Assembly: GCA_002009975.1 (NCBI GenBank)
Contig: MTLP01000027.1
Span: 1-13,307 of the forward strand
Length of the DNA: 13,307 bases
Reading direction: 5' to 3'
Origin: Thermococcus sp. JdFR-02
GTDB taxonomy: Archaea > Methanobacteriota_B > Thermococci > Thermococcales > Thermococcaceae
Both the position numbers and the translations under genes were made by a program. The notes beneath the pieces are model-generated. The model did no database searches. It saw nothing but the letters and a program-made list of their open reading frames with translations, and had not been told where the DNA came from. Numbering within the stretch: the stretch's first letter is position 1; every line of letters begins with the position of its first letter. Below, piece by piece: positions 1 to 13,307 of the stretch.

Positions 1-112
1 TTTGTAGAATAGGTTAGTTTGGTAGAATAGCCCGTTTTTTTATGGGCAAACTGAAAAACCAAGGATAAATAAATCCCCCCACATAAGCATCAACGCCAAT
101 TCGTCCCCTTCA

Positions 113-127
113 CTTATAAATCTTTTG
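113..127 (-). promoter_or_regulatory. Putative BRE/TATA promoter firing leftwards downstream of priS
   Basis: Minus strand CAAAAGA-TTTATAAG is a near-consensus Thermococcales promoter; its target is not visible in the window. Confidence 0.5.
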
Positions 128-146
128 AAGAAGAGTTAGAAACGAA

Positions 147-1175
147 TTATTTCTCCTGAGTTTCAAGCCAGATTTTGTAAGCTTCTTCAACCTCTCTTTT
201 TCTGAACTTTGGAACAGCATCTTTGAATGGGTTGAACTTCTTCAAATCATCTTCTTTTGTCCCAATGTATGTAGCCACAAGCCCAACTTTTGAATGCAGA
301 CTTGAAGGTACCCTTAAAATCCTCTTAACATCTATTGTAACTCTACCATCAAAATAGGCTTTTGAAAATGTGCTTGAGAGAGCAAAGAGCTTTAACAGGG
401 TTTTATATCCTATGCCTCTTGGAAAAGCTGTTAGAAGTGCCTTTTTCACGAATCCTCTAAGAATCTCTTCCCTACTGTTTAAAATCTTGTTTATGTTGCT
501 CTTGTTTATCCCAATATTCCTGAGGTGTTCAAAGCGAATTCTCATTATGAAATAACCAAAGCGAAGTCTAAAAGCTCTATAATAACCAGAAGAGAGCATA
601 ATTTTCCTGCTTTGCAAATCTTCAAAAGTTATCTCGTTAGCTGTACTTATATATGCCAAAATCTTTTCCCTTGCCTTTGCATCTAAATCCAAAGCCCAAT
701 CATCGAGTATTCTTATGTGATAACCTCTTCCTGAATACACCAAGTGGATATCTTCAAAGCCAAAATCCTCCTTTAAAATGACGAGGGTATCTTTGGCTAA
801 TTCTTTTGCATCTTCTAAGCAAATTGGGCAGACAGTTCCAGCTTCATGATTACAGCGCCTTAAAGGCAAGTCTTTTGCATCAATGTCAAAAACTAATTCT
901 GCTCCTAACCAACCCTCCATTTCTTTAGGTTCATCATAGAGAGCTACACTTGAATAAATAGCGTAGGGAGATGTAATTCTAACGTAATCCTCTAAATCTC
1001 TAACATCGTGAAAAACATTCTTTCTATCGCTTGGTCCTTCTCCATTATGATCAAAACCAAATTCTCTGTTCTCAAGAGTTTTTACTATAAAATCGGGCAA
1101 TTTTTTAGCACTCCATTCCCTCGAATAGTAAAGCTTTCTTTCCTTTTTTGTTGCTTCTCTCAACAGCTCACTCAC
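147..1175 (-). CDS. priS: DNA primase catalytic (small) subunit PriS
   Basis: AEP motifs: REFGFD, ELVFDIDAKD (catalytic DxD), zinc-binding CNHxxxxxCPIC, YSGRGYH, DGRVTIDVKRILRVPSSLH. The ORF track starts at 1193; GTG at 1175 (MSELLREATK) is preferred because it follows GAGGAG/AGTGA and overlaps the priL stop by 8 nt. Confidence 0.97.
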   Translation of the reverse strand: MSELLREATKKERKLYYSREWSAKKLPDFIVKTLENREFGFDHNGEGPSDRKNVFHDVRDLEDYVRITSPYAIYSSVALYDEPKEMEGWLGAELVFDIDAKDLPLRRCNHEAGTVCPICLEDAKELAKDTLVILKEDFGFEDIHLVYSGRGYHIRILDDWALDLDAKAREKILAYISTANEITFEDLQSRKIMLSSGYYRAFRLRFGYFIMRIRFEHLRNIGINKSNINKILNSREEILRGFVKKALLTAFPRGIGYKTLLKLFALSSTFSKAYFDGRVTIDVKRILRVPSSLHSKVGLVATYIGTKEDDLKKFNPFKDAVPKFRKREVEEAYKIWLETQEK

Positions 1176-2445
1176 TCTTTTCACTCTCCTCACTCCTCTT
1201 TCTGCTCTCCAAATAGAGCTTTCTCAAATAATAAGTTAAGGGATTTCTAATATACCTGCAATCTTTGTCAGGCTTGCAGAGTTGGGGTGCATTGGCCCTT
1301 ATCTTATCACAATTTGGCGGGAAGTACCAAGTTGAGTTGCCGCTTTCTTCTAAGGTTGGATAGCTCGTATAACCAAAGCCGAGATGATACCAAACATTCT
1401 TAACTTCATTAGGCTGATCTTCAAAAAGTGGAGGATTACAGCGATTACCAGCGTCGATAATTATAGGAAGAATCTCCTTCTCAATGATGCTCAAATCCTT
1501 TATGCAGTCCTTAACTCTAACGTTCCTTTTAGATGGATTTGGACAAATCCTTGCATAACTTATGAAAGACGTTAATAAAACTGTGATCGCATAGTTTCTG
1601 AGTCCAGAGGGGACACCACCTAAGGCTATCTTTATGCATGGTGGGAATAGATCAAATTTTAGTGGTTGTGCACTAGCTTTTTCAATTATCCCAAGCCTTT
1701 TTTTGAAATATTTCCTAGCTATTTCGTTCAATCGATGATATAGCTCGGAGTAATAATTTTGAAAAATCTCATCCCTATTTTCGTAAATTTTATTTACCGC
1801 TCGTTCGATGTTAAGTTCAAATGAACGTTGCCATGCGTTGATTAACATTCCCTTTTGTATATATACATAACCTCCTTTGACATAATATTTCTTTAAATCA
1901 TCCCCAATAAATTTGAAAAAATCGCTAATGTGAATCTTGAATTTCAACTCTTTATTCTCCCTATCTTCTATATCCAGTTCATCTTTCCATAATATCTTTT
2001 CCAGAATTATCCTATCTCTCTGATCAATTTCGTTTTTTGTAACGGCTTTGACTTTTATAGATAGCTGGTTAACTAGATTGTTAAGCTTCTCTGTTTGTTT
2101 AGAGGGCAGTATTTCCTTTTTGGTTTCTCTAATTCGTTGTTCAAATCTTGATCTATATATCTCTAAATTTGTTAACTTTACTAGTTCCATCTCTAGTCCA
2201 TATGGAGAAACCACTAATGCTCCTAATAGGGCATAAAATGTCATGATATCATAGAGTTCACCTTTTGTTCTATCCAAGTTAATTATATCATCAGGAGGAT
2301 AATTTTGAGTATTTATCCACGAAACTCTTTCTAGTGCTGTATTAACGTCTATTCTCGCTGGAATAATACTAAGAAACTCATTTAATGATTCAATACCTAC
2401 ACTGTTGAGATACTCCAAAGCTTTTTTACCAAACGGGTCTAACAT
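1168..2445 (-). CDS. priL: DNA primase large (regulatory) subunit PriL
   Basis: MLDPFG N-terminus and C-terminal Fe-S domain motifs FPPCI, G(L)RNYAITVLLTSF, WYFPPNCDKI, LCKPDKDCRYIRNPLTYY. AGGTGAG RBS upstream; overlaps priS. Confidence 0.96.
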   Translation of the reverse strand: MLDPFGKKALEYLNSVGIESLNEFLSIIPARIDVNTALERVSWINTQNYPPDDIINLDRTKGELYDIMTFYALLGALVVSPYGLEMELVKLTNLEIYRSRFEQRIRETKKEILPSKQTEKLNNLVNQLSIKVKAVTKNEIDQRDRIILEKILWKDELDIEDRENKELKFKIHISDFFKFIGDDLKKYYVKGGYVYIQKGMLINAWQRSFELNIERAVNKIYENRDEIFQNYYSELYHRLNEIARKYFKKRLGIIEKASAQPLKFDLFPPCIKIALGGVPSGLRNYAITVLLTSFISYARICPNPSKRNVRVKDCIKDLSIIEKEILPIIIDAGNRCNPPLFEDQPNEVKNVWYHLGFGYTSYPTLEESGNSTWYFPPNCDKIRANAPQLCKPDKDCRYIRNPLTYYLRKLYLESRKRSEESEKSE

Positions 2446-2486
2446 TGACTCACCTTAAAGTAAATTGAGAATTGAAAATAAAACAC

Positions 2487-4391
2487 TTATGCTTTTCTCA
2501 CCTCAACCCATGTAGAGTGATAAGCTGATGCCTTGCCATAATCATCATTTACTTCATCCGTTGTAAGGAAATTAACGTTCCATCCCAATAGCTTAGCCCA
2601 GAAAGCCTTATACAATACAACAACCCCTTTTTGAACATCTTCTGTAACTTTTACCTTAGTTTTGATGCTCCCAAATTCATTGTAGACCTCAACCAAGTCA
2701 CCATCACGAATACCTCTCTCTTCAGCATCTTTTGGATTCATGTAAAGATTAGCATCGATAATTTTGTAGGTGTTATGGTATTGACTTGTGACTGTAAATC
2801 TGTATGTTGGACTTAGCAACTGCAGTCCTTTGCCTTCAATGGGTTTGTATTGTGGAAACGGCGAAAGACCTCTTTTGAGAGCTCTTTGGGAGTAAAATTC
2901 AATCTTTCCACTTGGTGTATTATATCCACGCTCTTTCTCCTCAACTTTAATAAATCCTTTCTCTTTCAGCTCATCAAAGCTCAATCCATTCATCTCAAGG
3001 ATCTTTCTGATTATTTCTTCCTCACTTTCGTAGAGGTAAGGATTTTTAATCCCCAAGGCTTTGGCTAGGAGCTTTGTCACTTCATAGTTACTTTTTCCTG
3101 CTATTTCAATGACCTTCTCATTTAATGAAATGTAGCGATGATAGTAGGAATCGGCTATGTCTAATCTTTCAAAGAAAGTGTTCGCTGGTAAAACAACATC
3201 AGCAAATAAAGCCGTATCTGTCAAGAATATATCATGAACGACAACAAAGACATCGTTTTCTTTTAGGGCTTTTCTAAGGCGATTTTGATTTGGTAAAGAT
3301 GCTAGGGGATTTGAATTGTAAATATAGAGGAACTTTATCTCACCATTTTCAATGTATTTCGCTAATTCCATTTGAGGAATCCTTTTGATTGGTTTTGTCC
3401 TTAAGAATTTGCCCTCAGCGTAGCTTTTGTCTATTGTTTTCATGTCATAGATAAAACCAAATTTGTGACCGACTAATGCAGGTAGGATACCTACAGCTCT
3501 AATTGCCTCTCCCCCGATTAAACTTCTTTGAAATCCATAACCTATGTGAATTATCCCTCTTTTTTCTGCATATTCAAAAGCAAACTCCTCAATCCTTTCT
3601 CTATTTAATCCAGTCTTTTTACTAATAAAGTCCAAGTCAAGCTTTGAAACGTACTCTTTAAACTCCTTAAAACCAAAGACATTTTTCCTAACAAAATCCC
3701 TATCATAAATTTCGTTTTCAATTATAAGCTTTGCAATTCCTAAGGCAAACAGAACATCTGTATTTGGCTTTATTCGGAAAAACTTATCACTTCTCTTTGC
3801 AGTTTCTGTCTTTATTACATCAACGCTCCAAATTTGTAAACCAAAGCGTTTAGCGAGCATGAAGCCATGAAGATTTGTCCAGAAGGCATTAATTCCCCAA
3901 TATACAATTAGTTCCTGTTCCCTTAGCTTTTCAGGATCTAACCCTATAGCAGTCCCATAAATATCCTTTAAAGCTTCCTGTCCAGCTTTATCGCAGATTC
4001 CATAATCTAGAAAGCTCGTGTTTAAGTAATGGAAAAGTCTAAGTGGAAAAGCGTAGTTTATAACTCCTCTATCCCCAGCGTATTGATAAACTAAAACGCT
4101 CTCACTCCCATAATCCCTAATTGTTTCCTCTAACTTTTTGGCGATTAAGTTAATTGCTTCATCCCAAGAACTTTCTCTAAAATTGTTTTTACCCCTCTCT
4201 CCAGTTCTAATTAATGGAGTCTTCAATCTTTCTTCACTATGAACCCATTTTGGAAGCATAGCTCCTTTAGGACATAAAAATCCACCTGTTATTGGATGAT
4301 TTGGATTTCCTCTCACCTTTATCTTGTCATTTTTAATCTCAGTGACCATAGCACAAGTGTCATAGCAATCCCTCATACAGGTATTGAACAT
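2487..4391 (-). CDS. Molybdopterin (Mo/W-bisPGD, DMSO reductase family) oxidoreductase, cytoplasmic, substrate unknown
   Basis: N-terminal [4Fe-4S] motif CMRDCYDTC...GFLCPKG; RLKTPLIR, SWDEAI, DIFLTDTALFADVVLPA; C-terminal molydopterin-binding domain MNPKDAEERGIRDGDLVEVYN. No twin-arginine leader. GGAGGG RBS. Confidence 0.92.
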   Translation of the reverse strand: MFNTCMRDCYDTCAMVTEIKNDKIKVRGNPNHPITGGFLCPKGAMLPKWVHSEERLKTPLIRTGERGKNNFRESSWDEAINLIAKKLEETIRDYGSESVLVYQYAGDRGVINYAFPLRLFHYLNTSFLDYGICDKAGQEALKDIYGTAIGLDPEKLREQELIVYWGINAFWTNLHGFMLAKRFGLQIWSVDVIKTETAKRSDKFFRIKPNTDVLFALGIAKLIIENEIYDRDFVRKNVFGFKEFKEYVSKLDLDFISKKTGLNRERIEEFAFEYAEKRGIIHIGYGFQRSLIGGEAIRAVGILPALVGHKFGFIYDMKTIDKSYAEGKFLRTKPIKRIPQMELAKYIENGEIKFLYIYNSNPLASLPNQNRLRKALKENDVFVVVHDIFLTDTALFADVVLPANTFFERLDIADSYYHRYISLNEKVIEIAGKSNYEVTKLLAKALGIKNPYLYESEEEIIRKILEMNGLSFDELKEKGFIKVEEKERGYNTPSGKIEFYSQRALKRGLSPFPQYKPIEGKGLQLLSPTYRFTVTSQYHNTYKIIDANLYMNPKDAEERGIRDGDLVEVYNEFGSIKTKVKVTEDVQKGVVVLYKAFWAKLLGWNVNFLTTDEVNDDYGKASAYHSTWVEVRKA

Positions 4392-4500
4392 AATGCTCCC
4401 TCCTTTAGGATAGCTACAACAAAAAAATAAAAAAGTTTTGACACCATTAAAAATTCAGTGACAAATATTGTAGAAAATACAGAAGATTAAAGAACTTACT

Positions 4501-4517
4501 CCAAAAATCTTATATTA
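4501..4517 (+). promoter_or_regulatory. Putative BRE/TATA promoter for the KaiC-like gene pair
   Basis: CCAAAAATC-TTATATTA matches the archaeal purine-rich BRE + TATA pattern, about 90 nt upstream of ATG 4604. Confidence 0.55.
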
Positions 4518-4603
4518 CCTAAGGGAATAAAATAAAAATTAGACATGCTTCAATGTGAAGTTTGGAAACCGATCATGAAATTACTAATCATAAGGTGAGC
4601 AAA

Positions 4604-5353
4604 ATGGATAACCGCCCGATTATAAAAAGAATAAAAAGCGGAATCCCAGGCTTTGATGAATTAATTCAAGGCGGATTCCCTGAAAACACAACGATATTAG
4701 TTTCTGGTAGTACTGGTACTGGAAAAACAACTTTTGGGGCTCAATTTGTATATATGGGAGCCAAGGAATATGGAGAGCCTGGAGTGTTTGTTACATTAGA
4801 AGAGAGGGCTAAAGACTTGAGAAGAGAGGCAAAATCATTTGGATGGGATTTTGAAAAATACGAAAAAGAAGGCTTAATAGCGATAGTTGATGGTGTTAGC
4901 TCTACTGTTGGACTACCATCTGAAGAAAGATTCGCACTTGAAGATAGATTCAACGTTGACAACTTTTTGAGATATGTATACAAGGTTGTCAAACAGATAA
5001 ATGCTAAGCGTCTCGTTATAGACTCAGTTCCATCATTGGCTTTTAGGCTAGAGGAGGAGAAGAAAATCAGAGAGGTTCTCCTAAAACTAAACACGATATT
5101 GCTTGAAATGGGGGTAACTACTATTCTGACAACTGAAGCCCCAGACCCAGCAGCTGGTAGAATAAGTAGGTATGGAATGGAGGAGTATATTTCGAGAGGT
5201 GTTGTTATTCTAGACCTACAAGAAAAGAATATCGAGCTAAAGCGTTATCTCCTCATAAGAAAGATGCGTGAAACTAAACACTCTATGAGAAAATACCCAT
5301 TTGAGATAACGGATCATGGAATCGTTGTGTACCCAAGTGGAGAAATTTACTGA
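4604..5353 (+). CDS. KaiC-like / RecA-superfamily ATPase (COG0467), single domain, intact motifs
   Basis: SGIPGFDELIQGGFP, Walker A GSTGTGKT, catalytic TLEE, Walker B RLVIDS, C-terminal IRKMRETKHS. Closely resembles Pyrococcus horikoshii PH0186 as recalled. Start moved from TTG 4562 to ATG 4604, which follows the AGGTGAG RBS. Confidence 0.93.
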   Translation: MDNRPIIKRIKSGIPGFDELIQGGFPENTTILVSGSTGTGKTTFGAQFVYMGAKEYGEPGVFVTLEERAKDLRREAKSFGWDFEKYEKEGLIAIVDGVSSTVGLPSEERFALEDRFNVDNFLRYVYKVVKQINAKRLVIDSVPSLAFRLEEEKKIREVLLKLNTILLEMGVTTILTTEAPDPAAGRISRYGMEEYISRGVVILDLQEKNIELKRYLLIRKMRETKHSMRKYPFEITDHGIVVYPSGEIY

Positions 5354-5377
5354 CGTTAATTGCAAGGGGGATCCTAA

Positions 5378-6151
5378 TTGGTGCAGACAATGTCACCCTT
5401 ACTTGAGGAAGATAAGATTGAAAGAAGTGTTGAACGCATCCCTACTGGCATAATAGATGATCTAATTATGGGAGGAATACCGAGAGGAAGCGTGATTCTT
5501 TTAATTGGAGACCCAAAAGCAGGTAAAACAACTTTTGTCACCCAATTCATGTATAATCAACTAAAAAATGGAATTTCTACTATTGGAATATTAACCGATG
5601 TTGCAAAGCATGAGTTTATTAGCAATGCGCTGGATTTTGGATGGGATTTTATGCCGTTCTTAGAGGAGAGGGTACATTTCCTAGATGCTTATTCCCAGAG
5701 ATTAAGGGGAAAGCCGAGATTCAGCTTTGATGAAACTGTCGTTACAGATGTTAGCGATACGACTCAACTAATAGAGGCTATAAAAGATGTAACTTTAAAA
5801 GTCCTTGCCGATAAAAATCCCCCGATGATAACTGGTGTAATCTCTTCATTAACCCCGATCTTTTTTGAAACAGAGATTAAGCAGATTTACAAGTTTTTAG
5901 AGGATTTGAAAGACCTTGTGCATAGACAAAAGCAAGTATGGATATTAGAGATGAACTCCGGAATAGAAGAACCCCAAATAGAGATGATGGTAAAGGCAAT
6001 AGTCGATGGAATTATCGAGATGAAGCTCATGGAAGAGCAAAGAACCTTAAAGAGGTATCTTAGGGTTTATGGAATGAGGAGAACCAAGCACGTTCTCTCA
6101 TGGGTACCCTATGAAATAACCAACTATGGAATTCAAGTTCAAAGCATCTAA
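5378..6151 (+). CDS. KaiC-like / RecA-superfamily ATPase paralog with degenerate catalytic motifs
   Basis: RIPTGIIDDLIMGGIPRGS, Walker A GDPKAGKT, FGWDF, RYLRVYGMRRTKH. The EE motif is replaced (ILTD) and Walker B lacks its Asp (GVISS). Start could be TTG 5378, GTG 5381 or ATG 5390; AGGGGGA upstream. Confidence 0.88.
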   Translation: MVQTMSPLLEEDKIERSVERIPTGIIDDLIMGGIPRGSVILLIGDPKAGKTTFVTQFMYNQLKNGISTIGILTDVAKHEFISNALDFGWDFMPFLEERVHFLDAYSQRLRGKPRFSFDETVVTDVSDTTQLIEAIKDVTLKVLADKNPPMITGVISSLTPIFFETEIKQIYKFLEDLKDLVHRQKQVWILEMNSGIEEPQIEMMVKAIVDGIIEMKLMEEQRTLKRYLRVYGMRRTKHVLSWVPYEITNYGIQVQSI

Positions 6152-6156
6152 CTCAA

Positions 6157-6172
6157 CCAAAAAATTTTTAAT
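6157..6172 (+). promoter_or_regulatory. Putative BRE/TATA promoter for a leaderless OB-fold/TctA transcript
   Basis: CCAAAAAA-TTTTTAAT ends 23 nt before ATG 6195, which has no RBS. This is the spacing expected for a leaderless archaeal mRNA. Confidence 0.55.
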
Positions 6173-6194
6173 TCTGAAGCTGTTACTTATAATC

Positions 6195-7388
6195 ATGGTC
6201 AAAAAGAAAATATTAAATTTAGTATTGCTGACACTTGTTATAGTTTTATTGACGGGGCTCTATACAATTGGTGGTGATGTTGTTTCATCAAAAACTCTCC
6301 AAGAAGCCGAAAAAGGAGATATAGTGGAATTCCATGGAATGTGTGTAAAGGCTAAGGACAGCTACAGCGTGTTATTCAATGGAAAAGAGAGCATTGTTGT
6401 GTTTGAAAGGCTAAACGTTAGCCAAATATACGAGATTAAGGGTAAGCTCTATCAGGAAAAGGGTATAATTCCAATTTCAATCAAAAAAGCAGAAAAAGAA
6501 AAGTTGAATGTAACAAAAATAAAGGGCGCTATTTGGTGGGAAAACAGCAAATGTTACCTACTAACCCCACAGAAGATTTACTTACAAAGATGTTTGGAGA
6601 TAGAAAAAGGAAAAGTTATTGAAGCTGAGGGGATAATTTATGATGATATCTTTTACCCAATTTTTTATAGGGAGGGGGACTATTTAAAGAATCCAATGGA
6701 TGGAATGCCTTACAAAATTAATGGGACCGTTCTTTACGGAGGAAATCCTGCTACAATCTGGAAAAATGAAAAGATAAAAGTTTATTTGCCATACAAAGTT
6801 ACTCTCAAAGAAGGGCAAAAAGTTGAAATTCTTGGAATAGCCGACTTAAAATCTACATTAACTCTTTATGTCAGCTCACAAGAGGATGTGAAGTTATTAA
6901 ATAACACAGAAGTCTCTAAAATAGGCAATGAAAGAGTTGGAGATATTGTAAGTGGAACATGCCAGGTTATTAAGAGCTCAAGATTTTTGAAATTAAACTG
7001 CACAAAGCTGAGGTTTTATGGATTTAATGCTAATGTGGGAGACATAATTAAATTCAAAGCCCTTAGAAGAGAAAACTCATTGTACTGCCTAAGCTGTAGC
7101 ATTAAAATTCCTAGAAGGAGCTTAGAGAACTCAATCTGTGCTCCAAAGGAAGGAATAATAAAAGTCCATGGTCAGGTTAAAGAAGTTAAGATTTACAAAA
7201 ATGGTTTCGGATTAGCCAACATTACCTACAGGAACTGCTCTATTCTGCTAAAACTAAGGAAGTCTCTAAATATAGCAATAGCTGAGAATCAAACTATAAC
7301 CGCTTTTGGATACTACACAACATATAGAGGAAAGCCAGCTTTGGAAGTACAATCGAGGGAAGATATATGTTTAGAGAACTGTTCTTAG
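6195..7388 (+). CDS. Membrane-anchored/secreted protein with predicted tandem OB-fold domains
   Basis: MVKKK plus hydrophobic helix (ILNLVLLTLVIVLLTGLYTI), then about five 60-80 aa beta-rich units with recurring GDIVEFHG / GKVIEAEG / GQKVEILG / GDIIKFKA / NQTITAFG strands. The last ends GYYTTYRGKPALEVQSREDI, resembling RPA/YhcR-type OB folds. The ORF track start (6126) overlaps the upstream gene; 6195 is preferred. Confidence 0.7.
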   Translation: MVKKKILNLVLLTLVIVLLTGLYTIGGDVVSSKTLQEAEKGDIVEFHGMCVKAKDSYSVLFNGKESIVVFERLNVSQIYEIKGKLYQEKGIIPISIKKAEKEKLNVTKIKGAIWWENSKCYLLTPQKIYLQRCLEIEKGKVIEAEGIIYDDIFYPIFYREGDYLKNPMDGMPYKINGTVLYGGNPATIWKNEKIKVYLPYKVTLKEGQKVEILGIADLKSTLTLYVSSQEDVKLLNNTEVSKIGNERVGDIVSGTCQVIKSSRFLKLNCTKLRFYGFNANVGDIIKFKALRRENSLYCLSCSIKIPRRSLENSICAPKEGIIKVHGQVKEVKIYKNGFGLANITYRNCSILLKLRKSLNIAIAENQTITAFGYYTTYRGKPALEVQSREDICLENCS

Positions 7389-8506
7389 GAATGTTTTTTG
7401 GCACATTCACCGGCATAACTCCGGCTTTGCACGTCAACACATTAGCTGTGGTAATAGGGAACTTTAAGATTCAAGAATTTAACTTTGTGATTTTGGTTTT
7501 TACTATGGGCTTAACCCATACTTTTCTTGACTCAATTCCTTCTACCTTTTTGGGCGTTCCTGAAGAAGACACAGCTTTAACTGTTTTACCCGCTCATAGA
7601 CTAGTATTAAAGGGAAAAGCGTTAGAGGTGATTAACATTTCCATAACGGCAAGTCTTCTATCTCTCTTCTTGGCGATTCCACTAATACCCTTATATTCCC
7701 ATCTAGTCAACCTTTATACCCCATCCATTGGGAAAGTCTTTGTTTTCGCCATGTTTTTGATCTTAATCTTCACGGAGAGAGGAATCAAAAAGATCTCTGC
7801 TCTTATTATATTTCTCCTTTCAGGCATTTTAGGACTCCTAATAGATTACTTACCCTTAAGAGAGCCTTATTTTCATATATTTGTTGGACTTTTTGGCATA
7901 CCAACTTTACTACAAGCATTAAACTCTTCATTTGAAGTTGGAGATGAAAACATAGAAATGAACAAAGGCAATTTCTTAAGGTTTTCATTTTTAGGGACGT
8001 TTTTTGGAATGCTCGCTTCTCTCTTACCAACCTTCACATCCTCTCAAGCAGCATTGATAGGAAGTTTTATTTCAAAAGATGAGCGCTCATTTCTAACGAT
8101 TGCTTTCTCAGCTAACACTGCAAACTTCTTTTTCAGCTTGCTTAATTTCTACTTCACTGGAAGAACAAGGAACGGTATCCTTGTAACAATAAAAGAGGGC
8201 TATCCGATATTAAGCAAAGAAGAGCTGATATTCTTAATCCTCTCCTCTTTTTTAGTTGGAATAATCGTCTATATCTACGGACTATTTCTTGCAAGAACCT
8301 TTGGAAAAATTATTCAAAGATTAAATTACAAAGCCTTGAGCATTTGTATAATCTCGGGAATATTTCTCTTCTCATTCTATTTGGATAGTGTCCTAGGAAT
8401 AGCGGTTTTAGTAACCTCTTCCTTAATTGGCCTACTTGCAGTAAATTTAGGAGTCAAAAGAACAAACTGCATGGGAGTTTTAATGCTAAAAATAATGATA
8501 AAATGA
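7367..8506 (+). CDS. Archaeal TctA-family (tripartite tricarboxylate transporter-like, COG1784) permease
   Basis: Highly hydrophobic. TctA signatures GTFTGITPALHVN, HTFLDSIPSTFLGVP, LPAHRLVLKGKA; internal repeat LGMFFGTFTGITP vs LGTFFGMLASLLP; C-terminal GVKRTNCMG. Overlaps the upstream gene by 22 nt. Confidence 0.88.
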   Translation: MFRELFLGMFFGTFTGITPALHVNTLAVVIGNFKIQEFNFVILVFTMGLTHTFLDSIPSTFLGVPEEDTALTVLPAHRLVLKGKALEVINISITASLLSLFLAIPLIPLYSHLVNLYTPSIGKVFVFAMFLILIFTERGIKKISALIIFLLSGILGLLIDYLPLREPYFHIFVGLFGIPTLLQALNSSFEVGDENIEMNKGNFLRFSFLGTFFGMLASLLPTFTSSQAALIGSFISKDERSFLTIAFSANTANFFFSLLNFYFTGRTRNGILVTIKEGYPILSKEELIFLILSSFLVGIIVYIYGLFLARTFGKIIQRLNYKALSICIISGIFLFSFYLDSVLGIAVLVTSSLIGLLAVNLGVKRTNCMGVLMLKIMIK

Positions 8507-8509
8507 AGA

Positions 8510-8809
8510 TCAGCCCTTTAAAAGTCTTTGAAATTCGTTATAATTTGTAACTATCCTTTTTCCGTCCAAAGTTTCAAAATAAATCTTCTTTATTTGAATC
8601 TTCTTCATTGAGGTATATTTCATCCTTGGGGGATCATAAGAACCGGGTTCAACTATTTCATCCTCTATTACATAGGTTTTTAGCTCAGGTTCCCCAATAT
8701 ATCTCCAAACTTCAAAGAAAACCTCTGGTGACAAATGGATTTCCCCTTCTACTTCCGTATAGTCTGCACCAATATCTTCTAAGAACTCCTTTATTACCTC
8801 TAAGTGCAT
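8510..8809 (-). CDS. Conserved small hypothetical protein of Thermococcales (probably DUF5748 family)
   Basis: 99-aa ORF with acidic N-terminal half and EPGSYDPP motif. GGTGA RBS precedes ATG 8809 (track start 8821). Family name recalled, not searched. Confidence 0.75.
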   Translation of the reverse strand: MHLEVIKEFLEDIGADYTEVEGEIHLSPEVFFEVWRYIGEPELKTYVIEDEIVEPGSYDPPRMKYTSMKKIQIKKIYFETLDGKRIVTNYNEFQRLLKG

Positions 8810-8877
8810 AGAAATCACCATATCTATGTATAGGTCTCATTGGTTAAATACTTACCGCCTTTAAATACGTAAAGCAC

Positions 8878-8893
8878 AAAAAGGATATATTAA
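8878..8893 (+). promoter_or_regulatory. Putative BRE/TATA promoter of the RlmI-like gene
   Basis: AAAAAGGA-TATATTAA about 30 nt upstream of ATG 8924; RBS GGGGTGAG at 8913-8920. Confidence 0.55.
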
Positions 8894-8923
8894 GAAATAA
8901 AGAGGGTAGAGAGGGGTGAGAAA

Positions 8924-10114
8924 ATGGCAAAAGTTTACGTTGATGCTCAAGCTTATCGTGCCCTTGAAAAAGGTGCAATGATTATTTTCAAAAAAGGCGT
9001 GATAAGAGTTGATGGTGAAATAAAGCCTGGAGATATAGTGGAAGTTTACTCAAGAGGAGGGAAATTCTTAGGTAAGGGTTTTGCCAATCCTAACTCAAAC
9101 ATTATGGTGAGACTTGTAACTAAGGAGAGAGATGTAGAGGTCGGAAAAGAATTGTTTAAAGAGCGCATAAGGAAGGCAAATGAATACCGGAAGAAGGTTT
9201 TGGGTTGTAACAAAGTGTATAGAATGGTTTATGGTGAAGCGGACTATTTACCGGGCTTAATTGTAGATAGATTCAATGATATAGCAGCAATCCAAATTTC
9301 AAGCGCTGGAATGGAACGCTTTAAATTGGATGTTGCTGAGGCGATATTGGAAGTCGAGCCAGAAATCGAAACTATTTTTGAGAAGAACACTGGAAGAGCA
9401 AGAAGAAGAGAGGGACTACCCGAAATCGAGAGAGTTCTGTTGGGAAAAGAAAAATATAGAACGATAATAAAGGAAGGAAAAGCAAAGTTTATAGTTGACA
9501 TGAGAGGACAAAAGACTGGGTTTTTCTTGGATCAAAGAGAAAATAGAATAGCTTTGGAGAAGTATGTAAAACCAGGAATGGAGGTTTTGGATGTTTTTAC
9601 ATACACCGGAGGATTTGCCATACATGCAGCGGTTGCAGGTGCTGAGAAAATCATTGCAATTGATAAATCAGCACAAGCCATAAAGCAGGCAAGGGAAAAT
9701 GCAAAATTGAATGGCGTTGAGGATAAGATGGAATTTATTGTAGGTTCTGCATTTCAGGAGATGGAGCGTCTAATTAAAGAAGGAAGGAAATTTGATATCG
9801 TGATTTTAGACCCTCCTGCATTTGTCCAGCATGAGAAAGACCTAAAGAATGGGTTGAGAGCATACTTTAACGTTAATTACCAAGGATTAAGGCTTTTAAA
9901 GGATGGAGGAATCTTAGTAACCTGCTCATGTTCTCAACACGTGGATATGCAGCTATTCAAAGACATGATTATTGCAGCATCAGCAAAGGCTGGCAAATTT
10001 CTAAAGATGCTTGAGCCCTATAGAACCCAAGCTCCAGATCATCCAATCCTCATGGCATCAAAAGACACCGAATATTTGAAATGCCTCTTCCTTTATGTTG
10101 AGGACATGAAGTGA
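8924..10114 (+). CDS. RlmI/YccW-like class I SAM-dependent rRNA cytosine-C5 methyltransferase (COG1092) with PUA domain
   Basis: N-terminal PUA-like domain; GEADYLPGLIVDRF, GQKTGFFLDQRENR, VLDVFTYTGGF, ILDPPAF, catalytic TCSCS, APDHP, EYLK. The target nucleotide cannot be determined from sequence. Confidence 0.93.
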   Translation: MAKVYVDAQAYRALEKGAMIIFKKGVIRVDGEIKPGDIVEVYSRGGKFLGKGFANPNSNIMVRLVTKERDVEVGKELFKERIRKANEYRKKVLGCNKVYRMVYGEADYLPGLIVDRFNDIAAIQISSAGMERFKLDVAEAILEVEPEIETIFEKNTGRARRREGLPEIERVLLGKEKYRTIIKEGKAKFIVDMRGQKTGFFLDQRENRIALEKYVKPGMEVLDVFTYTGGFAIHAAVAGAEKIIAIDKSAQAIKQARENAKLNGVEDKMEFIVGSAFQEMERLIKEGRKFDIVILDPPAFVQHEKDLKNGLRAYFNVNYQGLRLLKDGGILVTCSCSQHVDMQLFKDMIIAASAKAGKFLKMLEPYRTQAPDHPILMASKDTEYLKCLFLYVEDMK

Positions 10115-11589
10115 TGTCTATGAAGCTGGAGGATTTGATAATTAGAGAATTCTTTTTTCAGGAATTTAGGCATAGAATTAACTATTATGGGCAGGAAAAA
10201 TTTAAGAAGTTTTTAATAAGAGCTCCGTTGATACAAATAACCTTTACATCCATAGCATTCTTCATGTTTTCAGTATTCTTTTTAAAAGTTATGAAGCAAA
10301 TCGGAGAAACAGAGTTAATTTACGCTTCAATAACTGCTTCTATGCTTTCATTCATGACCTTAATTTCAATGTTTTTAACTGTAGAATTTTTCCATGCCGT
10401 ATCTAAAATTGGATTAATAAAACCCCTTTCTTATCTTCCCGTAAAAATTGAGCTTCTTCCTCTTAAAGCTTGGACCAAATATTATGTGCCTCCACTAATA
10501 GCGATTATGATTCCCTTTTACTTCAAAGCTTTGCTTTATTCAAAAATAACCTTCATCATTTCAATAGTGTGGACACTAATCTCTATCTCCATAGGGTATG
10601 GACTTGGGGCTTTAATTTCAACATATTCTCTAAGATTTCAGAGAAAAGGAGTGCTTGCTGATGCTTTAAAGCTAATACTAAGGAGTTTTATCGTCTTTCT
10701 AGTTCTACTCTTCATTTTCTATGGGATAGTATCTCCAGAAGTTTTTAAAGAAACTGCTATAATTAATAAGATCAATCCCCACCTCTATCCAGTTGTTCAA
10801 GCGATAACTCTCTTTTTCTCAATACAGGGAATTGTTAAATGGAAAGACATTGTCGCATATATTATCTTCTCGCTCTCTGTTCTTCTTATGGGAAACTCCC
10901 TAGTGATAAAGCACCTAAATGAAGGTGTGTATTCATCTGAGCTGAAAAATCCATTTAAACCATCTTCCTTTGGAAGATTTCCTTCCATAGTTGCTAAAGA
11001 CTTAAGACTAGCACTTAGAAGAGCTACTTCTATATTCATCATTATACTCCCTCTCGTCTTGATTCTGCCATTTCTCTTCCTTGAAGAGATTGATATCGCT
11101 ACATGGACTTTAGTAGTTAGCAGTACAGCTGCAATTTCATCACTTAATGTTCAAATTCTCTTAATTGAAGAATATAAAAGTGGATGGTTTGTGTTCTCTT
11201 TACCAATCACTCTTAGAGAATTCAGGAACTCAAAAGCCTTTGCTACAATTTTGCTTTATTTCCCTATTCTCGCGCTTATTACTCTCTCCGCTTATCTAAG
11301 TAAAATAGAAATTTGGAGCTTCCTCTTTATTCTCGGGTTAATAAAAAATGCCCTAATTTCAAGATTTGCCGTATTTTGGTTGACAAGAGATGTTGAAAGC
11401 GAATACACAATGATGCCTGCTTATCTAACAATAACTGATGCACTTGCAATATTTTCCTTTGCATTTTTCATAGTTACTTTGCCAGTAATCATAATAAAGT
11501 TCACATATAGTTTGGTGGGAATATACGGCGGTGTTGTATCTTTGGCTTTAGATTTTGTTTTGTTGTTCCTCCTCTATAAAGGAACATAA
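10111..11589 (+). CDS. Polytopic membrane protein, probable ABC-2-type exporter permease (two fused halves)
   Basis: About 12 hydrophobic segments; ABC-2-like motifs IVAKDLRLALRR and EEYKSGWFVFSLPITLREFRNSKA, echoed in the first half by LIKPLSYLPVK. Start could be GTG 10111, ATG 10114 or ATG 10120. Confidence 0.68.
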   Translation: MMSMKLEDLIIREFFFQEFRHRINYYGQEKFKKFLIRAPLIQITFTSIAFFMFSVFFLKVMKQIGETELIYASITASMLSFMTLISMFLTVEFFHAVSKIGLIKPLSYLPVKIELLPLKAWTKYYVPPLIAIMIPFYFKALLYSKITFIISIVWTLISISIGYGLGALISTYSLRFQRKGVLADALKLILRSFIVFLVLLFIFYGIVSPEVFKETAIINKINPHLYPVVQAITLFFSIQGIVKWKDIVAYIIFSLSVLLMGNSLVIKHLNEGVYSSELKNPFKPSSFGRFPSIVAKDLRLALRRATSIFIIILPLVLILPFLFLEEIDIATWTLVVSSTAAISSLNVQILLIEEYKSGWFVFSLPITLREFRNSKAFATILLYFPILALITLSAYLSKIEIWSFLFILGLIKNALISRFAVFWLTRDVESEYTMMPAYLTITDALAIFSFAFFIVTLPVIIIKFTYSLVGIYGGVVSLALDFVLLFLLYKGT

Positions 11590-11594
11590 TCAGG

Positions 11595-11608
11595 CACAAG
11601 CTTATAAA
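11595..11608 (+). promoter_or_regulatory. BRE/TATA promoter of the C/D box sRNA
   Basis: CACAAG-CTTATAAA; the TATA ends 25 nt upstream of the sRNA 5' stem at 11633. Confidence 0.65.
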
Positions 11609-11611
11609 TTA

Positions 11612-11620
11612 GAAAAAAAC
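11612..11620 (-). terminator. Putative oligo(U) terminator for the RlmF-related gene
   Basis: A7 at 11613-11619 on + reads T7 on -, the first long T-run downstream of the stop at 11692. Confidence 0.4.
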
Positions 11621-11632
11621 CAAATGAAGAAT

Positions 11633-11691
11633 GGCGGATGAAGAGAAAGCACCTCCTCTGAAAGGTGAAGACACGCCCACGGTCTGACGCC
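11633..11691 (+). ncRNA. Archaeal C/D box 2'-O-methylation guide sRNA (dual guide)
   Basis: Terminal stem GGCG(11633-36)/CGCC(11688-91); box C ATGAAGA (11638-44); 13-nt spacer GAAAGCACCTCCT; box D' CTGA (11658-61); box C' GTGAAGA (11665-71); 12-nt spacer CACGCCCACGGT; box D CTGA (11684-87). GC-rich island in an AT-rich intergenic region, with an upstream TATA. Confidence 0.92.
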
Positions 11692-12426
11692 TTAAATTTG
11701 GAAAATCAGCGAGTGTCTTATCCTTGTCCCAGCTTTGAATGTTATATCCTTAACTTTGTATCCACATTTTTCTGCTTCCTTCTTTATAGCATTCAAAAGA
11801 GGCTCTTTATTGGGCAAAAAGAGAGCAACTTTTCCTTTTGATCTCAAGTAGTCTTTTGCTTCACTCAAAAGCATTATTGAGAATTCCTCTCCATATTTTC
11901 CTCCACCAACAGCTTCAATTTTGGTGAGAACGCCCTTTGTTGGTTTTTCATAATAAGGAGGTGCTGAAAAAATAACATCAAACTTCTCTTCTTTTGGGAT
12001 TACTCCTCTAATTAGCCCCCCATTACTCCTGATTAGCCTTACTTTAGCGTTGTTTTTCTCTATGTTTGCTTTTGCATATCTAAGAAACTCTTCACTAACC
12101 TCAGTTGCCCAAACTTCACAATCAAATAGCTTATTCGCCATGATGGACATCAAAGCTGAATGCCCAGTGCCGATCTCAAGAACCTTCTCTTTTCCTCTCA
12201 AAAAGGTCTTAAGGAAAATATAGCGAGAAATCGGAGGGGTTACCAATGCTTTAGGATGATAATTAATATCCAAGCCAAAAACAGCTTTAGCTATTGCCCT
12301 ATTATATAAAATGCGAGCTTCCCTATTGCCAAAATCAAGTTTTCCATCTCTAACATATTTTTTAAGCTCTGGAAAAACCTTTACAGCATCTTGAATTTTT
12401 AAGCCAAGCTCTTTGATTTGCTTCAT
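11692..12426 (-). CDS. RlmF-related (DUF890-like) SAM-dependent methyltransferase
   Basis: LDFGNREARILYNRAIAK N-terminus, LVTPPISRY, SAM motif VLEIGTGHSA, WATEV, motif IV FDVIFSAPPYY, GGGKYGE, FKAGTRIR. Confidence 0.85.
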   Translation of the reverse strand: MKQIKELGLKIQDAVKVFPELKKYVRDGKLDFGNREARILYNRAIAKAVFGLDINYHPKALVTPPISRYIFLKTFLRGKEKVLEIGTGHSALMSIMANKLFDCEVWATEVSEEFLRYAKANIEKNNAKVRLIRSNGGLIRGVIPKEEKFDVIFSAPPYYEKPTKGVLTKIEAVGGGKYGEEFSIMLLSEAKDYLRSKGKVALFLPNKEPLLNAIKKEAEKCGYKVKDITFKAGTRIRHSLIFQI

Positions 12427-12449
12427 ATGTCGCTTTAAATGAGTAGCTG

Positions 12450-12464
12450 AATAAATATTTTTTC
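12450..12464 (-). promoter_or_regulatory. Putative BRE/TATA promoter for a leaderless RlmF-related mRNA, directly after a T-rich terminator-like tract of the M20 gene
   Basis: Minus strand reads TTTTCCTCTTTTT-GAAAAAATA-TTTATT; the TATA-like element ends 24 nt before ATG 12426, which has no RBS. Confidence 0.5.
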
Positions 12465-12479
12465 AAAAAGAGGAAAATA

Positions 12480-13307
12480 TCAAAGCAAGGCTAGAGCCGC
12501 CATCACTTTTGCATCTTCTATAATATTGTTAATTTTTGCATATTCATTTGGTTGATGTGCTGTTTCATCTAAAGTTGCCCACACAACGGCTGGAATTCCA
12601 AGCATTCTAAAGTAAGCAGCAAATGTTCCTCCTCCAATACCACCAACGTGAGCTTCTTTTCCTCTAAGCTTTTTAATTGCCTCTCTTAAGAGTTTAACAA
12701 TTTCACTATCCTTTGGTGTTGGAGCTGGGGCATCTACTCTTTGCAAAACTTCAAGCTCAATTTTTGGCAAAACTTCACCATTAATCTCTCTCCTGTACTC
12801 TTCTTCAATTTTTTCAGCTATTTCTTTTGCATCTTTTAGAATATCATCGAGATTATATTGAGGCAAAACCCTACAGTCAAAGATTAGTTCATGCTCTCCA
12901 GGGGCAATATTGGGGGCATCACTTGGATTTTTAACTATTGTAGGTTCAAAAGTGCTTTCAGGAGGATCAAAGACTTCATCTTTGGCATTGTATTTTTCGT
13001 GTAAGAATTTGTCCAATCTCAAAGCATAATCTAGAGCAACTCTATGGGCGTTTAAGCCCTTATCTGGCATACTTGCATGAACCTGCTTACCTTTAACCTT
13101 AATCTCCATCCAAAGAATGCTTTTCTCAGCTATTTCGATAAAAGTACCTTCTTCGTTTCCACCATCTGGTACTAGGACTAGGTCGTTTTTTCTGAACAAC
13201 TCTGGGTGGTTTTTGATTAGCCATTTTAATCCGTACTTGCTTCCTGTTTCTTCGTCACTAACAAATGCTAGGATTATTGTTCTTTTTGGTCTTATTCCCA
13301 AGTTCAT
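12480..13307 (-). CDS. M20 family metallopeptidase/deacylase (ArgE/DapE-like), 5' end outside the window
   Basis: FVSDEETGS, VPDGG, AEKSILW, GKQVHASMP, NIAPG, FDCR, GGGTFA, AHQPNEY. The N-terminal metal ligands are absent, so the gene starts beyond 13307. Confidence 0.92.
   Translation of the reverse strand: MNLGIRPKRTIILAFVSDEETGSKYGLKWLIKNHPELFRKNDLVLVPDGGNEEGTFIEIAEKSILWMEIKVKGKQVHASMPDKGLNAHRVALDYALRLDKFLHEKYNAKDEVFDPPESTFEPTIVKNPSDAPNIAPGEHELIFDCRVLPQYNLDDILKDAKEIAEKIEEEYRREINGEVLPKIELEVLQRVDAPAPTPKDSEIVKLLREAIKKLRGKEAHVGGIGGGTFAAYFRMLGIPAVVWATLDETAHQPNEYAKINNIIEDAKVMAALALL

Follow-up and report, generated by a model that had tools for sequence, protein, structure and literature searches.

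The genome of Thermococcus sp. JdFR-02 carries two overlapping genes, one for a predicted membrane-anchored string of five OB folds (gene A) and one for a short TctA-like membrane protein. By architecture and gene order, this pair is probably the same kind of module as MMJJ_13020/MMJJ_13030, two genes required for transformation in Methanococcus maripaludis. Whether the pair is, as a whole, the Thermococcaceae version of a coupled OB-array and TctA-like module for nucleic-acid capture and transport is in our judgment an evenly balanced question. Our window, i.e., the whole stretch of DNA that was analysed, comprises 13,307 nucleotides (GCA_002009975.1, contig MTLP01000027.1, positions 1-13,307 of the forward strand). 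It contains the following features:

4562-5353 and 5378-6151, + strand: two single-domain KaiC-type (RecA-superfamily) ATPase genes (PF06745, E = 3e-84 and 8e-35)
6159-6171, + strand: promoter-like element composed of a BRE-like A-run, then a TATA-like T-run plus AA
6195-7388, + strand: gene A, 397 aa, predicted membrane-anchored protein with five OB-fold units, without a Pfam family
6198-6275, + strand: N-terminal hydrophobic helix of gene A (residues 2-27 in the AF2 model; KKK before the helix)
6321-7346, + strand: ectodomain of gene A, five beta units from the AF2 secondary structure
7355-7359, + strand: putative Shine-Dalgarno-like GAGGG, 7 nt before the TctA-like start and within the end of gene A
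7367-8506, + strand: short archaeal TctA-like (DUF112) polytopic membrane protein, 379 aa, PF01970

The published Methanococcus pair

The OB/TctA-like pair of Methanococcus is the only genetic lead to how DNA passes an archaeal membrane. As reported, in-frame deletion of either MMJJ_13020 (OB fold, one TM helix) or MMJJ_13030 (TctA-like, 11 TM helices) abolishes transformation of M. maripaludis, and both deletions were complemented (Fonseca et al. 2023, PMC10133366). The original prediction had named this screen, and the study bears out what it said of it. The study also reports that a TctA-like homolog is likewise required for transformation in Methanoculleus thermophilus, that a thermonuclease was also among the Methanococcus screen hits, and that T. 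kodakarensis and P. furiosus carry TctA-like proteins (PMC10133366). The idea of the TctA-like protein as a DNA channel is not new; the same study already proposes it as the DNA transporter in place of ComEC (PMC10133366).

Two overlapping genes behind a promoter-like box

Gene A starts at the ATG at 6195, a start that is backed by the N-termini of 24 homologs. A longer open reading frame from 6126 was rejected because the homolog N-termini do not back the extension. Gene A and the TctA-like gene overlap by 22 nt (7367-7388), exactly as had been predicted. The overlap holds because all 25 aligned homologs of the TctA-like protein share its first Met.

The promoter-like box lies about 27 nt before the ATG of gene A, its end 23 nt before it. 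Read by eye, the distance from the end of such a box to the start codon is 21-24 nt in the window and 13 of 14 related loci; the remaining locus (L119) is ambiguous. This agrees with the BRE/TATA element of its own that the pair had been predicted to have. By the TATA-to-start distance rule of archaeal promoters, the position of the box implies a gene A transcript that is leaderless or has a very short leader, as far as can be told from the sequence alone. A scan for sigma-70 promoters and terminators was set aside; it does not suit archaea, and shuffled sequences had more sites.

A relative that is about 97% identical is present in four RNA runs (one sample, one study), where one 3058-nt RNA-library contig covers the second KaiC-type gene through the TctA-like gene. 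Such contigs cannot give transcript, strand or ends, and since flanking genes on the opposite strand are also covered, DNA carry-over is possible. The contig ends near 6222-6229 and the uncovered parts were given no weight.

Gene A encodes a predicted string of OB folds

The AF2 model of gene A (pLDDT 91.8) consists of a helix at residues 2-27 and five beta units (residues 43-98, 107-160, 172-234, 240-305, and 321-384), in line with the predicted N-terminal anchor and about five beta-rich units. A Foldseek search of the model against the PDB gave 29 matches at E<=0.001, with tandem-OB nucleic-acid binders on top. The best match is p204 HINab-dsDNA (4e-8), followed by bS1, Teb1, TEBP, BRCA2, RPA70, and CST. 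The Foldseek probability is 1.0 for the HIN-200, Teb1, RPA70, and Stn1 domains. The model thus puts OB-fold barrels in gene A, and the expectation that the ectodomain would model as tandem OB folds was borne out. Sugars and proteins, too, are ligands of OB folds.

By sequence, the fold is hardly visible. Pfam gives no family for gene A at E<=0.1, neither PF01336 nor helix-hairpin-helix; the one sequence match, to uS17, is sub-threshold, and a search of the PDB by sequence returned two chance-level matches only. Compared with each other by hhalign, the five units align weakly (best E 2e-4), so that repeats among them were rejected as anything more than weak.

The ectodomain is basic (pI 9.2), units 4-5 being the most basic of the five (pI 9.7-10). 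Basic and aromatic positions that are conserved in these two units comprise R292, R307, K323, K332, Y334, F338, K353, Y377, and R378. The original prediction of many Lys/Arg and aromatic residues was not borne out: among the 1538 long open reading frames of the genome, gene A is at the 77th percentile for Lys+Arg (15.4%) and at the 46th for aromatics (9.5%). It is rich in Cys (11 residues, 98th percentile of the same set), which is consistent with an extracellular domain. From the positive-inside rule we infer that the helix is a signal anchor, with the N-terminus inside and the remainder of the protein outside the cell.

Gene A appears in sequence searches as a narrow family. All of its 51 homologs that have an organism name belong to Thermococcus or Pyrococcus. 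Against 1.84 billion representatives, the gene A profile matched 21 proteins at E<=0.001 and nothing convincing beyond Thermococcales. Those at E<=1e-10, nine in all, cover the profile as complete or incomplete gene A copies, and the four weaker ones that were read (P0180, P0181, P0190, and P0191) are repeat or multi-domain proteins. Homology to the OB partners in other phyla (see below) could be demonstrated neither by profile search nor by hhalign, which gave a probability of 26% against two-OB proteins from Hadarchaeota and of 10% against one-OB proteins. In the ESM Atlas the nearest clusters to gene A are archaeal OB-fold proteins (scores 0.88-0.94), which we treat as a lead only.

A short TctA-like protein without TctB or TctC

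The TctA family comprises secondary transporters of small carboxylates. The second gene had been predicted to be TctA-like, and it matches PF01970 with 133.8 bits (cut-off 28.9; E 8.6e-39) over profile positions 4-422 of 423. It is the sole TctA-family gene in the genome; its T. kodakarensis ortholog is P0146. Its AF2 model (pLDDT 91.0, pTM 0.89) is all-helical, and hydropathy and model together suggest roughly 10-12 TM helices. Searched against the PDB, the model has no Foldseek match at E<=0.001 (best E 0.11), and the sequence profile finds nothing at E<=1. Hence, the fold gives no indication of mechanism, be it a channel or an elevator. The internal repeat that had been predicted for the permease comes down to one 15-residue motif (6-20 vs 208-222); when the two halves were compared by hhalign, E was 0.18 and the probability 0.3%, and we rejected the repeat.

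In the tree, the protein falls within a 48-row archaeal TctA-like clade (support 100). A branch as long as 2.3 changes per column sets this clade apart from two canonical TctA proteins, each about 500 aa in length (from L002 and L003, two other genomes of the phylum). An alignment of 45 TctA-like sequences from several phyla has 28 invariant columns. Among the relatives are two 667-aa fusion proteins, in which a TctA domain (7-411) is followed by a staphylococcal-nuclease domain (569-667); they match 98% of the length of the window's TctA-like protein (E 5e-20).

Neither TctB (PF07331) nor TctC (PF03401) has a match in the window or in the 99.99%-complete genome, whereas control genomes were matched by both. 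This is what had been predicted for the surroundings of the pair, and for TctC it extends to the rest of the genome. The ComEC Competence domain (PF03772) likewise has no match in the genome.

The pairing is conserved

In each of the 83 family genomes that were searched with both queries, a TctA gene immediately follows gene A in the same orientation. The gaps between the two matches range from -7 to +115 nt. Across the order, the pair is found in 95 of 99 genomes, including lineages that are not known as competent. This near-universality fits a housekeeping role as well as transformation.

In other archaeal phyla, TctA-like genes of the same clade come after genes for one-helix proteins that have between one and four OB folds. 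For 30 of 80 listed loci from these phyla we scanned open reading frames that lie near the TctA-like gene and were picked for one N-terminal hydrophobic segment. PF01336 matches 25 of the 30 at E<=0.01 (11 above the Pfam cut-off, 14 below), and five are without a match. Records from Woesearchaeota, Nanoarchaeota, and Undinarchaeota contain the module too. The conserved pairing that had been expected from a neighbourhood survey is thus found within and outside the family.

Two or three long TctA matches are present in 38 of the 83 family genomes. At all three such loci that were read, the second copy stands in the arrangement OB, TctA-like, YdjM. This OB/TctA-like/YdjM module is absent from the JdFR-02 genome, whose two YdjM genes lie on other contigs.

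Co-folding of the two proteins

Co-folding gene A with the TctA-like protein gave a score of 0.49 (runs of 0.51, 0.00, and 0.49), and the best of three controls reached 0.01. The mark used was passed by 58 of 80 solved complexes and by 2 of 110 mismatched pairs; scores that pass the mark at 0.60 or less belong to seven of the 80 solved complexes and to both passing mismatches. These benchmark counts hold roughly, because our own alignments were used. Between runs the agreement is at least 0% of contacts, and the partner pLDDT is at least 77. The run at 0.00 counts against an association of gene A with the TctA-like protein, to which the modelled complex lends weak support.

What the module may do

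We propose that the two genes would form one translationally coupled unit with a promoter of its own. Gene A, held by its N-terminal helix, would expose its five OB folds on the outer side of the cell as a basic string rich in disulfides. At the cell surface, this array would catch nucleic acid from the surroundings and pass it to the TctA-like protein, which would work without TctB or TctC and take part in moving DNA, a strand or fragments across the membrane. The pair would be the Thermococcaceae version of a pan-archaeal module of a one-helix OB-fold protein and a TctA-like protein. That the module serves nucleic-acid uptake in JdFR-02 seems to us as probable as that it does not. We consider unlikely the narrower claim that DNA passes through the TctA-like protein itself.

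One could also argue that the TctA-like protein conducts nothing and instead serves as an anchor, a positioning aid or a regulator for the OB array (or a nuclease), while DNA crosses through another protein. The model of the TctA-like protein has no pore-like relative in the PDB, the TctA::nuclease fusions look like a membrane protein serving as platform for an outside enzyme, and the Methanococcus genetics demonstrate requirement, not conduction (PMC10133366). According to the same study, the screen identified no membrane transporter other than the TctA-like protein (PMC10133366), and 28 invariant columns suggest more than an anchor; we think this explanation rather improbable. The protein could also be a secondary transporter of small solutes such as nucleotides, short oligonucleotides or another anion, with the OB array in place of TctC and an effect on transformation that is indirect, or absent in this lineage. 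The Pfam name speaks for a secondary carrier, and the top Foldseek matches of the model, weak as they are (all E>0.1), are to the elevator-type anion carriers pendrin, CitS, BicA, and TRAP SiaQM. Near-universality in the family would fit as well, as would the presence of the module in Woesearchaeota, Nanoarchaeota, and Undinarchaeota, which are often salvage-dependent. Yet arrays of up to five OB folds are better suited to a polymer, the nuclease fusion points to a polymeric substrate, and the complete loss of plasmid transformation in two methanogens would be left unexplained (PMC10133366). We hold this to be fairly doubtful.

Indirect effects by way of surface structures are conceivable, as the Methanococcus hits were mostly pilus genes (PMC10133366). 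The pair might then encode a factor for envelope or pilus biogenesis, and the loss of transformation in methanogens would be secondary. There is no pilus gene within the window, however, and the TctA::nuclease fusions do not fit. We also know of no role of OB folds in pilus assembly, and give this explanation a slim chance. The usual annotation, an ordinary tripartite tricarboxylate (citrate) transporter, draws on the PF01970 match and on the name "tripartite tricarboxylate transporter permease" that relatives bear in source databases. Against it stand the lack of both TctB and TctC, the length of 379 aa as opposed to about 500 aa, and the long branch to canonical TctA; the canonical TctC-TctB-TctA sets in L002 and, less completely, in L003 also look different. 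We give it almost no credence, and the original suspicion of a misannotation is upheld by the missing subunits and the separate clade.

The KaiC-type ATPase genes upstream invite a bolder reading of our preferred module, in which four co-oriented genes would form a line for DNA import that does without ComEC. Here the OB array would reel in DNA, the TctA-like protein conduct it, and the ATPases, by analogy with the RecA-family helpers of bacterial transformation, receive or pull the strand from the cytoplasmic side. Of 14 related loci, 10 have both KaiC-type genes before gene A, one has a single one, and three have none. The four-gene order in those 10 loci and the 3058-nt contig count for such a line. 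The conserved promoter-like box of gene A counts against it, as does the fact that KaiC is missing in three loci and unlinked to TctA-like genes outside the family, where 93 loci gave one weak match and KaiC was rejected as part of the module. We regard the four-gene line as very unlikely.

To our knowledge, archaea lack ComEC. The window's pair is a testable candidate for an archaeal DNA-import route, found as a diverged five-OB pair in every genome of the Thermococcus/Pyrococcus family that was examined. Since naturally transformable strains exist within the family, T. kodakarensis among them, a direct and cheap genetic test is possible, and the gene A ectodomain offers thermostable material for binding and structural work. 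A routine misannotation is corrected as well, in which a "tripartite tricarboxylate transporter permease" stands without TctB or TctC next to a partner labelled "hypothetical protein".

Comparison with known systems

In TctABC of the TTT family, known from citrate uptake in Salmonella, the membrane subunit shares the TctA family model with the window's protein over its full length. The latter is about 120 residues shorter than a TctA of about 500 aa and belongs to a separate clade, and its partner is a predicted membrane-anchored OB array, whereas TctABC uses a soluble TctC-type binding protein. The proposed logic resembles ComEA/ComEC, in which an outward, membrane-anchored DNA-binding protein stands beside a polytopic membrane protein. 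This is an analogy only, as there is no homology. ComEC itself has an OB fold.

The OB/TctA-like/YdjM module shares with the window's pair the TctA-like clade and the preceding OB-fold protein, and it may be this module that truly corresponds to the Methanococcus pair. Our literature searches found no paper on this module or on the TctA::nuclease fusions. Unlike both, the window's pair comes without a YdjM-type hydrolase or an attached nuclease.

Compared with MMJJ_13020/MMJJ_13030, the OB protein of the window is distinct in having five OB folds, no Pfam match, and relatives in Thermococcaceae only. The JdFR-02 genome also has no SNase-type nuclease, whereas a thermonuclease scored in the methanogen screen. 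In both cases, a one-helix OB-fold gene is followed by a TctA-family gene, TctB and TctC are missing, and the host lacks ComEC. The window's pair is a new, sequence-diverged member of this published kind and not a new system.

The locus

Four consecutive genes on the + strand of the window encode two KaiC-type ATPases, gene A and a TctA-family protein.

Features in and around the gene pair
Upstream of the four-gene run, - strand: two primase subunit genes
2487-4391, - strand: molybdopterin oxidoreductase gene (634 aa), between the primase large-subunit gene and KaiC1
4562-5353, + strand: KaiC1, single-domain KaiC-type ATPase (RecA superfamily)
5378-6151, + strand: KaiC2, single-domain KaiC-type ATPase (RecA superfamily)
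6195-7388, + strand: gene A, N-terminal helix and five OB-type units
7367-8506, + strand: TctA-family gene (PF01970)
8510-8821, - strand: DUF5748 gene (103 aa, E 2.5e-48), convergent with the TctA gene
Beyond DUF5748: genes for a PUA-domain methyltransferase, a 12-TM membrane protein, a second methyltransferase and an M20 peptidase
12480-13307, - strand: the M20 peptidase gene, ArgE/DapE type

The named closest proteins to gene A and to the TctA protein belong to Thermococcus, Pyrococcus and Palaeococcus. The start of gene A at 6195 agrees with the N-termini of 24 homologs, and the TctA gene starts at 7367 with a Met that is invariant in 25 of 25 aligned sequences. Therefore the two genes overlap by 22 nt, as the original prediction had it. 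GAGGG lies 7 nt ahead of the TctA start.

The pair was also expected to have its own BRE/TATA, and the 43-nt gap between the KaiC2 stop and gene A bears this out. The gap holds an A-run, then a T-run plus AA (6159-6171), ending 23 nt before the ATG. Read by eye, 13 of 14 related loci (chosen by us, from five genera) have a similar box that ends 21-24 nt ahead of the start codon. The case of L119 is ambiguous, and our script set the starts in L116 and L113 a few codons too early. By archaeal promoter spacing, such a distance between box and start is that of a leaderless or very short-leader mRNA. The position of the box hence implies that the pair has its own promoter and a transcript of this kind.

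Of the 14 related loci, 10 have both KaiC-type genes directly ahead of gene A, 1 has one of them there and 3 have neither. Outside the family, we found only one weak KaiC match near TctA-like genes among 93 loci. Given the conserved promoter of gene A itself, we treat the KaiC-type genes as conserved neighbours rather than as demonstrated parts of a module. KaiC1 and KaiC2 are about 27-30% identical to each other and are closest to 'thermo_KaiC_1' in NCBIfam, below its cut-off.

The molybdopterin oxidoreductase gene has no match in any of the 14 related loci, five of which have the primase genes directly adjoining KaiC1; it looks like an insertion in the window's lineage. The DUF5748 gene is kept in the same place in 8 of the 14. 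The primase genes are close to the pair in the window's family, and the large-subunit gene adjoins a TctA-like gene in 5 of the 93 outside loci (L011-L014 and L099, all one lineage); this proximity is possibly an old synteny.

Gene A is predicted to be an anchored string of OB folds

No Pfam family matches gene A at E<=0.1, and its sole NCBIfam match, below threshold, is to the OB-fold ribosomal protein uS17. The AlphaFold model (pLDDT 91.8, pTM 0.76, from an alignment of 25 sequences) has a helix at residues 2-27 and five beta units at 43-98, 107-160, 172-234, 240-305 and 321-384, matching the N-terminal anchor and the about five units read from the sequence at the outset. The units have weak sequence likeness to each other (best hhalign E 2e-4). 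KKK ahead of the helix and the abundance of conserved Cys point to a signal anchor with the N-terminus inside and the C-terminus outside.

Foldseek gives 29 PDB matches at E<=0.001, and most of them, including all of the top ten, are DNA or RNA binders with an OB-type fold, in keeping with the proposed fold. The leaders are p204 HINab with dsDNA (E 4e-8), ribosomal bS1, Teb1, telomere end-binding protein, BRCA2, RPA70 and CST. The low TM-scores (0.1-0.4) are what a flexible chain of domains should give.

The claim that gene A is rich in Lys/Arg and aromatic residues did not hold up. In the ectodomain Lys plus Arg make up 15.4% and aromatics 9.5%, the 77th and 46th percentiles of the genome's 1538 long ORFs, but the ectodomain is still basic (pI 9.2; about 9.7-10 in units 4 and 5). 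Its Cys content is at the 98th percentile of the same ORFs.

Gene A belongs to a narrow family: its profile finds just 21 proteins at E<=0.001 among 1.84 billion representatives. By profile cover, the 9 matches at E<=1e-10 are whole or partial copies of gene A, and four weaker matches that we inspected are repeat or multi-domain proteins. In three loci of one genus (L116, L124 and L125; genomes G009, G006 and G011) gene A is only about 230-245 aa long and matches profile positions of about 11-228, which is two to three OB units. L113 (G004) has gene A broken into two overlapping frames. All four loci retain an intact TctA gene.

A TctA-like protein without TctB or TctC

PF01970 matches the permease over its full length, and the permease is the sole TctA-family gene of the genome. 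TctB and TctC, noted at the outset to be missing beside it, have zero matches (PF07331, PF03401) in the whole 99.99% complete assembly (2.36 Mb, 44 contigs), as has the ComEC Competence domain (PF03772); named control genomes are positive for each. The model of the permease is all-helical (pLDDT 91.0, pTM 0.89), with several short helices between long ones. Nothing in the PDB matches it significantly by structure (best E 0.11), and no PDB chain matches its family by sequence; the weak top structural matches are elevator-type anion carriers. The internal repeat ascribed to the permease did not hold up: its halves have only a 15-residue motif in common (hhalign E 0.18).

Our tree of 50 rows comprises the window, 18 of 120 listed Thermococcales proteins, 8 phylum loci, 18 of the 80 loci listed by the pattern search described below, 3 second-copy proteins and 2 canonical TctA. 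Those from Thermococcaceae group in a single clade (support 100), sister to a protein of the order's second family (support 97). This clade is nested in an archaeal TctA-like clade (support 100), far from the two canonical proteins. Two loci from the phylum's genomes, L002 (G081) and L003 (G001), also hold a canonical TctA, about 500 aa long (E 2e-137, 3e-123). By ORF layout only, the one in L002 has a small membrane ORF like TctB and a TctC-like ORF beside it, and a TctC-like ORF lies near that of L003.

Conservation of the pair

The gene A profile matches in 95 of 99 genomes of the order. Leaving aside the window's genome, its family accounts for 94 matches in 96 genomes and the second family for 0 in 2. 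PF01970 is present in 98 of 113 genomes of the phylum (completeness >=85%). The predicted pairing is conserved in the family: in all 83 family genomes searched with both queries, a TctA match follows gene A directly on the same strand, at gaps of -7 to +115 nt. The arrangement of an OB-fold gene and a TctA-like gene recurs in three more loci of the phylum, one of them the same record as L032.

Judged by sequence, the TctA-like membrane protein extends far beyond this family. Searching one-genome-per-species contigs with a pattern built on its best-conserved segment yields 494 relatives; the 80 listed include, by record titles, Methanofastidiosia, Theionarchaea, Hadarchaeota, Altiarchaeota, Woesearchaeota, Nanoarchaeota, Undinarchaeota, Methanosarcinales and Thermoplasmata. 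From these 80 loci we picked 30 ORFs with one N-terminal hydrophobic segment, one per locus; 20 of them immediately precede the TctA-like gene and 10 lie at other places within 2.5 kb. In a Pfam scan 25 matched PF01336 at E<=0.01, 11 of them above Pfam's cut-off and 14 under it, and 5 had no match. OB partners thus occur in at least 25 of the 80 loci, which is a floor and no frequency because the scan covered 30 loci, with ORFs of our choice, and Pfam misses even gene A. Partner lengths of about 111-134, 216-227, 311 and 429 aa point to one to four OB folds apiece.

Two or three long TctA matches occur in 38 of the 83 family genomes. We inspected three second-copy loci (L017, L019 and L026) of 16 fetched (L016-L031; e.g., L019:16-4214), where a TctA-like protein of 443 aa has a long ORF on either side. 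The upstream neighbour has 419-487 aa and is PF01336-positive in the two loci scanned. Downstream lies an ORF of 465-466 aa in all three, scanned in L019 only, where it is a 466-aa YdjM protein (PF04307) with an inserted OB fold. In the tree, second copies form a long branch within the same archaeal clade. The window's genome has no such copy or module, just two small YdjM genes on other contigs. Either the second-copy module or the pair with gene A may be the counterpart of the Methanococcus pair.

Evidence on a possible function with nucleic acids

Two proteins of 667 aa, P0192 and P0193, are fusions of a TctA domain (7-411) and a C-terminal staphylococcal-nuclease domain (569-667). Their matches to the window's permease have E 5e-20 and 6e-17, with 26% identity across 98% of the permease. 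One of them is encoded on a 6.0-Mb contig. By its domain content, this fusion ties the TctA-like clade to nucleic acid with no recourse to the OB partner. The window's genome has no SNase match. A thermonuclease is also among the hits of the Methanococcus transformation screen (PMC10133366).

Co-folding gives weak support to a predicted contact between gene A and the permease. The score is 0.49 (runs 0.51, 0.00 and 0.49), and the best of 3 controls reaches 0.01. Of 80 solved complexes 58 reached the mark used, as did 2 of 110 mismatched pairs, counts that hold only roughly here as we used our own alignments; at 0.60 or under, only 7 of the 80 complexes reached it, together with both mismatches that passed. 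Contact agreement between runs was at least 0%, and partner pLDDT at least 77.

A relative about 97% identical is found in metatranscriptome contigs from four runs (one sample, one study). A 3058-nt contig corresponds to 5171-8228, from the end of KaiC1 through KaiC2 and gene A into most of TctA, and a 1924-nt contig (6229-8152) crosses the gene A/TctA junction; such RNA-library contigs are no proof of a single transcript, and the library may contain DNA.

Comparison with the Methanococcus pair

The Methanococcus transposon screen mentioned in the original prediction is published. It reports that transposon insertions and in-frame deletions in MMJJ_13020 (OB fold, one TM helix) and MMJJ_13030 (TctA-like, 11 TM helices) abolish transformation, and that complementation restores it (Fonseca et al., Mol Genet Genomics 2023, PMC10133366). 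A TctA-like homolog of Methanoculleus thermophilus is likewise required, and T. kodakarensis and P. furiosus are named among the carriers of the family (PMC10133366). BLASTp found no clear MMJJ_13020 homolog in Methanoculleus thermophilus (PMC10133366), in line with how quickly OB partners diverge in our data. The screen hits also include MMJJ_14410, a 'putative succinyl-diaminopimelate desuccinylase' (Table 1, PMC10133366). The window's M20 peptidase gene lies 4 kb from the pair on the opposite strand, and its likeness to this hit is probably a coincidence.

Our literature search found the pair treated only in Fonseca et al. and its preprint, and no paper connecting 'DUF112' with 'Thermococcus'. 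MMJJ_13030 also figures in a table of transcripts elsewhere (PMC11097638). Natural competence is stated for T. kodakarensis and P. furiosus COM1 in passages that do not mention TctA (PMC13385129).

The window's pair is probably the same kind of module as the Methanococcus pair. Whether it serves nucleic-acid uptake in Thermococcus sp. JdFR-02 we consider an even bet. Fonseca et al. propose the TctA-like protein as an archaeal transporter in place of ComEC (PMC10133366); that this protein is itself the conduit seems unlikely to us. The value of the window's pair is that a mechanistically unexplained kind of module becomes testable in a tractable hyperthermophile. The interpretation of the original prediction is the hypothesis published for the Methanococcus pair, carried over to a diverged member from the Thermococcaceae.
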